Source: a virus (lineage: Duplodnaviria; Heunggongvirae; Uroviricota; Caudoviricetes). From it: a stretch of DNA of 9,457 nt. Positions 7,435-8,237 of the stretch are shown piece by piece. Each line of letters starts with the position of its first letter. Position 1 is the first letter of the stretch. The stretch lies in the IMG/VR virus record IMGVR_UViG_2657245660_000018; one strand, written 5' to 3'. Under the pieces are notes generated by a model that ran no database searches, was not told where the DNA came from, and saw only the letters and a program-made list of their open reading frames with translations. Both the position numbers and the translations under genes were made by a program.

Positions 7435-7467
7435 GTGTGATATCACACTACCAGCACGTGATATCAC
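7435..7467. promoter_or_regulatory. pair of palindromic operator-like sites (GTGTGATATCACAC and GTGATATCAC), centres 21 bp apart
   Basis: Perfect 14-bp palindrome at 7435-7448 and perfect 10-bp palindrome at 7458-7467, read directly. They overlap the 3' end of the 257-aa gene and lie upstream of the terminator and alpA. Confidence 0.55.
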
Positions 7468-8237
7468 TTTTTACGTTTTTGTTGAGATTCACGCCCCAAA
7501 TACTTTTGCCATGTCTGCCAATGTGTTTTTGGAAATTCTATCCCTCTGGATGCAGCTATAGAATCAATTAAATCTGCTATTTTAGGTAATGATTCCGTGT
7601 CCAGGTCTACATCACCCATTTCTGGAATAAGTTTAATTAAAGAGTAAATAACCTCATTCCTTTTTGACGATGCTTTTGGGCTATCTTCTGTTATCTTCGG
7701 GAAGTCTCCCGTATTTTTTATATTATCTAAATCACTAGCCATCACACACAAATAGTTAACATCAAATTCATAACCACCCTTACAAAAAACATACATGAGA
7801 TTATCATCACCATACTTATTCGTAAGATGAGAACATTTTATATATTGTCTCATGCTAAATTCGACATCAGCAAAAACATATGCCGGAGTATAATAAAACC
7901 CTGATAAGCTGCTAACATAATAACATTTGATAGAATTCCCTACAGGACCAATAATGGCACTATCTAAAAATTCAGTGTCACCAGTTAAACCAACTGTAAA
8001 ATTACTTCCAAAAACAGCAGATTCATCATTGAAAGGATATTTTATTAATTCTTCCTCATTACAACCATTGATAAAATGACATAATGAAAAATTGAATTTT
8101 TTAGCATCAATTTTTGGTATATATACAGAAATATTAAGAGCACCTATATATGCGTAATGATAAAGATCTTTTATTGCACAGCCTAACTTTTCTGCCGCTT
8201 CAGGTAACGGATAATAGAGTCTTTTAGGTAATTTCAT
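7464..8237 (-). CDS. AT-rich orphan protein of unknown function (257 aa); candidate accessory / cargo gene
   Basis: ATG at 8235-8237 overlaps the int stop (ATGA), with AAGGTGG inside the int 3' end. TGA stop at 7464-7466. G+C is about one third by eye, against about one half in the flanking genes. No family recognised. The N-terminal segment PLPEAAEKLGCAIKDLYHYAYIGAL loosely resembles an AlpA/excisionase-type HTH. Confidence 0.75.
   Translation of the reverse strand: MKLPKRLYYPLPEAAEKLGCAIKDLYHYAYIGALNISVYIPKIDAKKFNFSLCHFINGCNEEELIKYPFNDESAVFGSNFTVGLTGDTEFLDSAIIGPVGNSIKCYYVSSLSGFYYTPAYVFADVEFSMRQYIKCSHLTNKYGDDNLMYVFCKGGYEFDVNYLCVMASDLDNIKNTGDFPKITEDSPKASSKRNEVIYSLIKLIPEMGDVDLDTESLPKIADLIDSIAASRGIEFPKTHWQTWQKYLGRESQQKRKK

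Follow-up and report, generated by a model that had tools for sequence, protein, structure and literature searches.

A candidate regulator of alpA encoded between the integrase and alpA genes in a lineage of Gram-negative phage-inducible chromosomal islands

What is the function of a gene that sits between the integrase of a satellite island and the gene that activates it? The question is raised by IMG/VR record IMGVR_UViG_2657245660_000018, a 9,457 nt stretch of DNA (hereafter the window) corresponding to an E. coli phage-inducible chromosomal island (PICI), in which a gene encoding a 257 aa protein, both here referred to as X, lies between int (8234-9457, minus strand), encoding a tyrosine integrase of 407 aa, and alpA (7148-7372, minus strand), encoding the master activator of Gram-negative PICIs. 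These islands are started by AlpA (PMC6092414, PMC11773190), and its gene is turned on by the helper phage via a factor that has yet to be identified (PMC6092414; PMC11773190); whether a global repressor exists has been called 'unclear' (PMC6092414, the founding paper of 2018; PMC11773190), and the alpA promoter was still handled as a black box in a 2025 study (PMC11773190). The original prediction for X, made from the window, was of an orphan gene in a slot for variable cargo, with a role in defence, helper interference or regulation. Of these options it is the regulatory one that gained support, and defence did not: our leading explanation, held tentatively, is that X is a dedicated DNA-binding regulator of the alpA promoter that senses the helper phage, within a variant int-X-alpA module.

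The coding sequence of X extends from 7464 to 8237 on the minus strand and begins with ATG, exactly as first called. The start overlaps the int stop codon as ATGA at 8234-8237 (gtg gcc aaA TGA aat tac on the coding strand), and a Shine-Dalgarno sequence, AAGGTGG, is found within int at 8242-8248 (minus strand), four nt upstream of the ATG. Both features had been pointed out before and can be read directly in the sequence; together they would arrange X for expression coupled to that of int. Overlaps of 4-8 nt with the int stop codon are present in nearly all loci, X being uncoupled from int in L058 and L059; in L059, where the two genes do not overlap, the Shine-Dalgarno sequence is nonetheless retained, as it is in L061. 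The G+C content of X was computed as 0.323, relative to 0.489 for int and 0.476 for alpA, which agrees with the earlier estimates by eye of about one third against about one half for int, and the sliding profile reaches its minimum of 0.30 at 7800-8250. However, this composition is typical of the whole family, being 0.29-0.39 in 13 of 13 loci and always below that of int, and because it is constant across the family it cannot be read as a mark of recent foreign origin.

The family to which X belongs is undescribed: it is annotated as 'hypothetical protein' everywhere and is represented by no curated model. The X protein had no significant match in Pfam (no family at E<=1), NCBIfam, PHROGs or PADLOC, as would befit the uncharacterised product originally envisaged, and the best signals from these libraries were at the level of a helix-turn-helix (HTH), namely PADLOC mad1 (a 60 aa HTH; E=0.015, residues 8-34) and phrog_13283 (E=0.02, residues 1-48). 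The term 'orphan' is therefore apt as regards curated families but not as regards relatives, since a word-indexed search retrieved 19 close clusters from E. coli, Salmonella, Klebsiella and Providencia, all labelled 'hypothetical protein', and an exhaustive profile search found 390 representative clusters at E<=1e-3, 54 of them at E<=1e-30. No significant Pfam or NCBIfam domain was detected in 105 relatives, two of which matched HTH_17 weakly (best E about 1e-3); the same 105 proteins contained no Bro-N, KilA-N, ANT, Rha or ORF6 domain, and produced one marginal match in PADLOC (PDC-S05, 4.6e-4). No effector domain, whether nuclease, NTPase, TIR, transmembrane or of another kind, was found in X or its relatives. 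A tblastn search of 50,697 phage records returned no homologue of X, and a literature search by the accession of the protein returned no mention of it. A peptide scan of genome contigs yielded no confirmed relative, because species-representative genomes seldom carry the island.

Alignments and sub-profiles define three domains in X. The N domain (aa 1-45; 8103-8237, minus strand) is a winged HTH of the MerR/Xis/AlpA structural type, with invariant residues R6, Y8, L11, A15, K17, C20, D24 and H27. The M domain (aa 46-178; 7704-8102, minus strand) is beta-rich and hypervariable yet homologous, retaining G113, F114, E126 and L163 as invariant positions; it has no fold match, and is the part of X with the lowest G+C content. 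The C domain (aa 185-257; 7467-7685, minus strand), delimited by domain profile matches, is small and helical, ending in TWQKYLGR and then a basic tail; it has no relative in the PDB or Pfam, and sequence-profile searches of the PDB with the whole family and with this domain gave chance matches alone (bL33m and SKP1; E>0.04). Two of the three domains, M and C, are hence without a detectable relative. An AlphaFold2 model built from a 19-sequence alignment (mean pLDDT 78, pTM 0.60) predicts that the N domain is small, helical and winged, that the middle is rich in beta structure and includes four long strands, and that the C domain is helical; a Foldseek search with this model, as had been advised, matched nothing in the PDB or BFVD. 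The modelled N domain is a three-helix winged helix that is superposable on the DNA-binding domains of Xis, MerR and BldC, its structural relatives (with the figures given for each) being Pukovnik Xis (5.6), BldC (5.3), RdfS (5.2), the AlpA-family GIsul2 excisionase (5.2) and MerR proteins (about 5). The Xis- or AlpA-like HTH that had been suspected at the N terminus is thus present as a winged-helix fold of the Xis/MerR type, but this does not extend to sequence families: X is matched neither by the Phage_AlpA profile (PF05930) nor, at the gathering score, by HTH_17 (PF12728), and a comparison of the N-domain profile with 13 island AlpA proteins using hhalign revealed no similarity (probability 0.4%).

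Attention had also been drawn to the cysteines and histidines of X. There are indeed seven Cys and four His residues, and no catalytic motif, but the only conserved ones are C20 and H27, both in the N-terminal HTH; the strings SLCHFINGC, KCSH and CKGG, considered as metal-binding or catalytic motifs, belong to the hypervariable part and show no conservation, which leaves X without a motif of either kind. Across 163 retrieved proteins the architectures were N-M-C in 49, N-?-C in 32, N-M in 19 and N only in 52, and therefore the modules shuffle. One relative, P0100 (380 aa), has two tandem N domains (residues 2-36 and 127-161), each followed by a middle region, which suggests an internal duplication of the N-M unit.

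The pattern of variation between islands follows these domains. The M domain has 14-37% aa identity between islands in which AlpA is 84-100% identical. Relative to the window, the proteins of L054, an E. coli island at the rcnR site, are 69% (Int), 75% (N), 26% (M), 95% (C) and 100% (AlpA) identical, whilst the corresponding values for the Salmonella island L010 are 68%, 38%, 14%, 95% and 84%. At the DNA level, identity between the window and L054 is 94% at the 5' end of X, 32-56% across the M region and 96-99% across the C domain, the intergenic region and alpA, with breakpoints coinciding with the domain borders; the DNA of the C domain is 97-99% identical between E. coli and Salmonella islands. 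The M domain therefore behaves as a cassette exchanged between conserved flanks. The combination of a variable M domain with a C domain, operators (described below) and alpA that are 95-100% identical fits conserved targeting of DNA with diversifying ligand specificity.

The position of X is as constant as its middle domain is variable. The contexts examined came from five genera (E. coli, Salmonella, Klebsiella, Providencia and Pantoea) and from metagenomes, and in every one of them X lies between the gene for an integrase of ~407 aa and alpA, across differing attachment sites and downstream modules. This order is seen in E. coli islands at the rcnR site, in Salmonella, in Klebsiella, in two copies within one Providencia genome, in Pantoea (L037) and in metagenomic and IMG/VR contigs; it is also seen in an island with a different integrase, of 473 aa, and around the distant member P0139, which has the N domain alone in common with X. 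The same Int type is the partner of X throughout, L059 excepted. Relatives in which the C domain is retained also come with conserved cis-elements of their own upstream of alpA. Sister islands at the cspD/clpS site, with ~93-95% DNA identity over int and alpA, have a 410 bp non-coding spacer in place of X; the 5' end of their alpA differs, and AlpA is identical from residue 10 onwards. These natural X-less islands, that of STEC17-190 among them, share the chromosomal site in Shiga-toxin-producing E. coli. Immediately past the int stop codon, the spacer of one of them (L002, 2770-2810) contains a long inverted repeat, ATAAATCGTCGA..TCGACGATTTAT, which may be the terminator of int or a regulatory site of the alternative module; Rfam identified no known RNA family in this spacer or in the window. 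The published PICI EcCIMP1 has a gap of 427 bp between int and alpA in RefSeq and no member of the X family. It was considered as a carrier of X, given that a gene is numbered between int and alpA in its annotation, and was rejected on the RefSeq evidence of a spacer.

In the loci examined, the interval between int and alpA is occupied by a member of the superfamily or by non-coding DNA, and never by other cargo. The locus has two alternative states, X together with its cis-elements, or the spacer, and is therefore not a slot with alternating cargo, contrary to the original prediction; what its comparison across related islands did reveal was the presence or absence of X among sisters and the swapping of the central domain. 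X is probably not cargo but a fixed part of one type of PICI control module. The low G+C content of X, its presence or absence among sister islands, its rarity (the C-domain/operator segment occurs in 66 of 5426 complete E. coli genomes) and a hypervariable central domain such as an arms race predicts could also be reconciled with accessory cargo, directed against phages or interfering with the helper, in which the variable domain would sense a phage, the protein would block it and the HTH would be autoregulatory only; satellites are known to carry defence genes, a subject of PMC9122126 and PMC10085698. We consider this unlikely in view of the invariant position, the non-coding nature of the X-less interval and the package of operators, predicted promoter and hairpin before alpA that accompanies most relatives, and of searches that found neither an effector domain nor conserved catalytic residues, no homologues amongst the phage records, and nothing from PADLOC beyond the HTH-level mad1 signal for X and the single marginal match amongst its relatives.

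The ties between X and int prompt another explanation, that X is a recombination directionality factor (RDF) or other accessory to Int, the Xis-like N domain bending att DNA and steering the integrase, hence the coupling of the two genes. Although the overlap with the int stop codon in nearly all loci, the Xis-like fold and the constant pairing with the ~407 aa Int type, outside L059, are all as this would predict, the sister islands manage at the same site without X, despite their near identity in int and alpA, and X is uncoupled from int in both L058 and L059. Furthermore, RDFs are small proteins of about 50-130 aa that consist essentially of a DNA-bending domain, unlike a 257 aa protein with three domains and a hypervariable middle; AlpA and Int suffice for excision in the PICIs that have been studied (PMC6092414; PMC11773190); and the sole repeats associated with X are not in the att arms, but 0.8 kb downstream of int, beside alpA. 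A role of this kind seems unlikely.

These repeats belong to a 90 bp layout that separates X from alpA in most loci of the family, consisting of GTGATATCAC, a spacer of 10-12 nt, GTGATATCAC again, 22-23 non-conserved nt, a -10-like hexamer, a hairpin and the alpA ATG. In the window, palindrome 1 is at 7458-7467, where it contains the TGA stop codon of X, and palindrome 2 is 21 bp away at 7437-7446; these are the two occurrences of GTGATATCAC in the window, against 0.2 expected, and both are upstream of alpA. The palindromes are conserved in L003, L008-L012, L037, L050-L054, L056, L057, L059 and L061. Their centres are 20-22 bp apart, and the -10-like hexamer follows at 22-23 nt in each of the loci, whilst the intervening sequence drifts. 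The hexamer, TAGAAT at 7408-7413 (minus strand) in the window, was recognised in an alignment of nine diverse loci, eight of which have A at position 2 and T at position 6, and the variants are TAGAAT, TACAAT, CAGAAT, AATAAT, CAATAT and CAAAAT. No -35 element is recognisable upstream. We infer that TAGAAT is the -10 element of an alpA promoter, and if transcription starts ~7 nt past the hexamer, the palindromes would form two putative operators centred near -61 and -40, two helical turns apart, the latter overlapping the -35 position.

The distribution of the palindromes suggests a connection with X. Within PICIs they are found only beside an X gene or a weak X-like analogue, and the X-less islands have neither palindromes nor hairpin despite a near-identical DNA-binding region in AlpA; therefore AlpA alone does not explain the sites. 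In L058 (5110-5240), the gene for P0139 (302 aa, with a different C-terminal region) is followed by TAGTAACTTACTA and GAGTACGTTTACTC, which represent AGTA-N-TACT twice, then by the hexamer TAGAGT and by a hairpin that covers the Shine-Dalgarno sequence of alpA. The layout is that of the window, but the operator sequence is different, and the conservation of one with a change in the other in a distant X lineage suggests that the palindrome co-varies with the protein.

The remaining part of the layout is a hairpin at 7380-7407 (minus strand), with an 8 bp stem (CGUCCUCG/CGAGGACG) and a 12 nt loop, the 3' arm of which holds the alpA Shine-Dalgarno sequence, GAGGA (7382-7386). A run of seven U residues follows at 7373-7379 (minus strand), and the alpA ATG is directly next to it at 7372. 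The structure is similar to an intrinsic terminator, which the original prediction had correctly placed after X in this window; an automated terminator scan missed it because it allowed loops of 3-8 nt, and the 12 nt loop is atypically long. In the window both the stem and the U run of a rho-independent terminator are present, but the U run is not conserved along with the stem, being found in E. coli, Salmonella and metagenomic (L052 and L053) loci and absent from Klebsiella, Providencia, Pantoea and the E. coli locus L050. Across nine diverse loci, 92.6% of the cells in a 9 bp helix are paired and six of the nine pairs have compensatory double changes, compared with 35-44% pairing when the 3' partners are slid by 1-3 columns, and the observed covariation score was reached by 0 of 500 shuffles. 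G-U pairs occur on this strand, and the 3' arm constitutes the alpA Shine-Dalgarno sequence in the variants GAGGA, AGGAG, AAGGG and AGGTGG, with the 5' arm covarying. As judged from these alignments, the conserved property of the hairpin is the predicted occlusion of the alpA ribosome-binding site in int-X transcripts, not termination. The read-through RNA has a folding energy of -24.1 kcal/mol (z -3.7), whereas no significant structure results for an RNA that starts inside the 5' arm (-4.7 kcal/mol, z +0.6).

The hairpin loop (7388-7399) has features of its own. Comparison of the equivalents in L005, L008, L037, L050, L052, L059 and L061 revealed a direct repeat, which most lineages have as GAAC-N6-GAAC; in the islands of E. 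coli and Salmonella it is the reverse complement, GTTC-N6-GTTC, as though the whole loop had been flipped as a unit. The repeat could be a protein site at the level of DNA, possibly for AlpA. In the window, the stem could also be extended by the CG-GCAA-CG of the loop, with a GNRA cap.

These elements can be assembled into a switch. Through translational coupling, the int transcript would yield X along with Int, and X would thereby be present in the quiescent island. There it would bind the two GTGATATCAC palindromes, which lie ~40 and ~61 bp upstream of the predicted alpA start, probably with a pair of dimers sharing one face of the helix, and so control an alpA promoter without a -35 element. 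The hypervariable M domain would read a signal, most likely through contact with a helper-phage protein, upon which the switch would flip and AlpA would start the island cycle. Repression relieved by the phage, as with Stl of the SaPIs, is the preferred mode, because X would be present in the quiescent state, one operator overlaps the -35 position and alpA is autocatalytic; phage-dependent activation from -40 and -61 would be the alternative, and this geometry suits an activator equally well. The hairpin would insulate alpA from int-X read-through, as a terminator in E. coli and through burial of the ribosome-binding site in all lineages, whereas a transcript from the predicted alpA promoter would begin inside the 5' arm and leave the ribosome-binding site free. 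Taken a step further, and held with more reserve, X may be the phage sensor of a Gram-negative PICI lineage, with the two GTGATATCAC sites as its operators and the binding of a helper protein to the M cassette flipping the switch; with the same reserve, this would make it an independently evolved Gram-negative counterpart of SaPI Stl, with an insulating RNA hairpin, in which exchange of M reprogrammes the inducing helpers. It is from the observed domain architecture, synteny, mosaic pattern, element spacing and hairpin covariation that we infer DNA binding by X, the domain that binds, the promoter and its start site, the sign of regulation and the phage ligand.

A number of observations weigh against this model of X as the regulator of alpA. 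Most PICIs, including all those studied experimentally, lack X. The predicted alpA promoter amounts to a -10-like match only, and a consensus promoter scan did not call it because the -35 element is missing. A site of 10 bp is shorter than is usual for a classical HTH dimer, and because palindrome 1 overlaps the stop codon of X, physical linkage confounds the association between palindromes and gene. L049, in which the N domain is near-identical and the C domain divergent, has no GTGATATCAC, and in Enterobacter vonholyi (L046, 2241-4785) a split integrase gene is followed by a 71 aa HTH open reading frame (ORF) and a 225 aa ORF with a weak match to the C domain, possibly a single frameshifted analogue of X, and then by an AlpA-like gene with two exact copies of the GTGATATCAC palindrome before it, the N-terminal HTH being different. 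These patterns imply that the palindromes track the C domain, or merely the adjacent DNA, and not the N-terminal HTH. Because neither the M nor the C domain has a match among known folds or families, the putative sensor role is drawn from the pattern of variation alone, and the support for the model as a whole is computational.

The palindromes also occur elsewhere. A scan of genome contigs for the palindrome pair gave 36 matches, of which the relevant ones are those of Pantoea (L037) and the weak Enterobacter analogue (L046); in IMG/VR there were 63 matches, nine of them the PICI module and the rest belonging to an unrelated gut-phage family, to hairpins of high G+C content or to a tandem repeat. 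Around 40 IMG/VR contigs (L066-L118; 35-60 kb, G+C 0.40, mostly from sample 3300045988) are unrelated phages with GTGATATCAC-TTGTTTGATATC-GTGATATCAC and no int, X or alpA near the pair, which is therefore not diagnostic of PICIs by itself. The palindromes could instead be targeted by a phage or host factor, and X might be an unrelated passenger next to a promoter read by a transcription factor of the helper phage or host, or by AlpA. That would accommodate the pair being found beside unrelated genes, both a Rha-family gene in L047/L110 and those of the gut-phage contigs, the occurrence of X without palindromes in L049, and the fact that helper phages switch on alpA in islands without X (PMC6092414). 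Against it stand the restriction of the palindromes, within PICIs, to the neighbourhood of X or its analogue, their absence from X-less islands with the same AlpA, and the retention of the layout around a different palindrome in L058; we regard it as improbable. Regulation of alpA by X remains the reading we prefer.

The island in which this module lies is present with identical sequence in E. coli O157:H7 FRIK2455, between cspD/yljB and clpS. Its size is ~8.7 kb, and the FRIK2455 gene order is int, X, alpA, YlcI/YnfO (on the opposite strand), icd-like, DUF4222, D5/DUF5906 primase, terS and capsid-like, with which the Pfam assignments of the window genes agree; these include Phage_integrase (1.6e-17) and Arm-DNA-bind_3 (1.5e-16) for int, in keeping with its RefSeq annotation, and Phage_AlpA (2e-16) for alpA. 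The mechanically called ORFs of 235 aa at 6431-7138 (minus strand) and 120 aa at 6651-7013 (plus strand) do not correspond to annotated genes, RefSeq having in this region a 59 aa YlcI/YnfO gene, encoded on the opposite strand, together with a 67 aa icd-like gene. In the window (1-3100) and in L001 (12781-21200), the island ends with terS and a 307 aa capsid-like gene (Phage_capsid, 1.3e-6), without protease, portal or terL. Identity with the capsid-forming PICI EcCIEDL933 was considered and rejected, as the latter is 15.4 kb long, and the lack of protease, portal and terL together with the small size indicates a different island; a further ground is that the description of EcCIEDL933 names no gene intermediate between int and alpA. 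The two Providencia rettgeri copies (GCA_001680125; L008 and L009) are near-identical over the whole island and the flanking chromosomal genes, and are on two large contigs; int is uncalled in one of them.

For the question of how helper phages activate Gram-negative PICIs, the module offers a compact handle, comprising one protein, two 10 bp operators, a predicted promoter and a covarying hairpin, together with natural domain-swap variants and natural knock-outs in the form of the sister islands. If the M domain sets helper specificity, it would explain the partitioning of helper phages among closely related islands, and would add a protein family, with probably two new folds, to the arms race between satellites and phages; should X instead prove to be a defence gene, it would represent a new single-gene system. 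In either case a family of ~390 clusters, annotated only as 'hypothetical protein', merits a name.

A satellite regulator that senses its helper is of a kind already known, although the X family itself is new. The nearest precedent is Stl of the SaPIs (Rpr in other Gram-positive PICIs), an HTH protein encoded beside int and the subject of PMC6695447 and PMC9638917, in which conserved DNA binding is combined with a divergent partner-binding part that reads helper-phage proteins. The architecture and variation pattern of X are suggestive of the same switch logic, yet there is no relation of sequence or fold beyond the HTH, the variable domain of the three in X is in the middle, unlike in Stl, and X is known from sequence alone. 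Stl differs further in being divergently transcribed and in repressing str/xis along with the replication genes; X has the same orientation as int, is coupled to it, and has as its putative target the promoter of an activator gene, alpA. In comparison with the AlpA/Vis/Xis proteins (PF05930, HTH_17; MerR-like winged helix), X is 3-4 times longer through two extra domains, besides its failure to match their Pfam models and its lack of profile similarity to the AlpA of the islands themselves. The Bro-N regulators of satellites, such as CapR of PLE and those of the 'Bro zone' of Gram-negative PICIs (PMC10111431), are likewise domain-swapping, DNA-interactive regulators, and the N-x-C shuffling of X is comparable to theirs; however, Bro genes are downstream of alpA, whereas X is upstream of it in the integration zone. 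Finally, the cI/cro immunity region of lambdoid phages shares with the X locus the tandem palindromic operators on one helical face, overlapping the -35 position of a key promoter, and the nature of a mosaic, low-G+C module exchanged between elements. X has no peptidase or RecA-sensing domain, unlike the lambdoid repressor, and the two differ in what evolves: in the lambdoid phages it is operator specificity that diversifies, whilst here the operators are nearly invariant across genera and it is the middle domain, outside the putative DNA-binding part, that does so.

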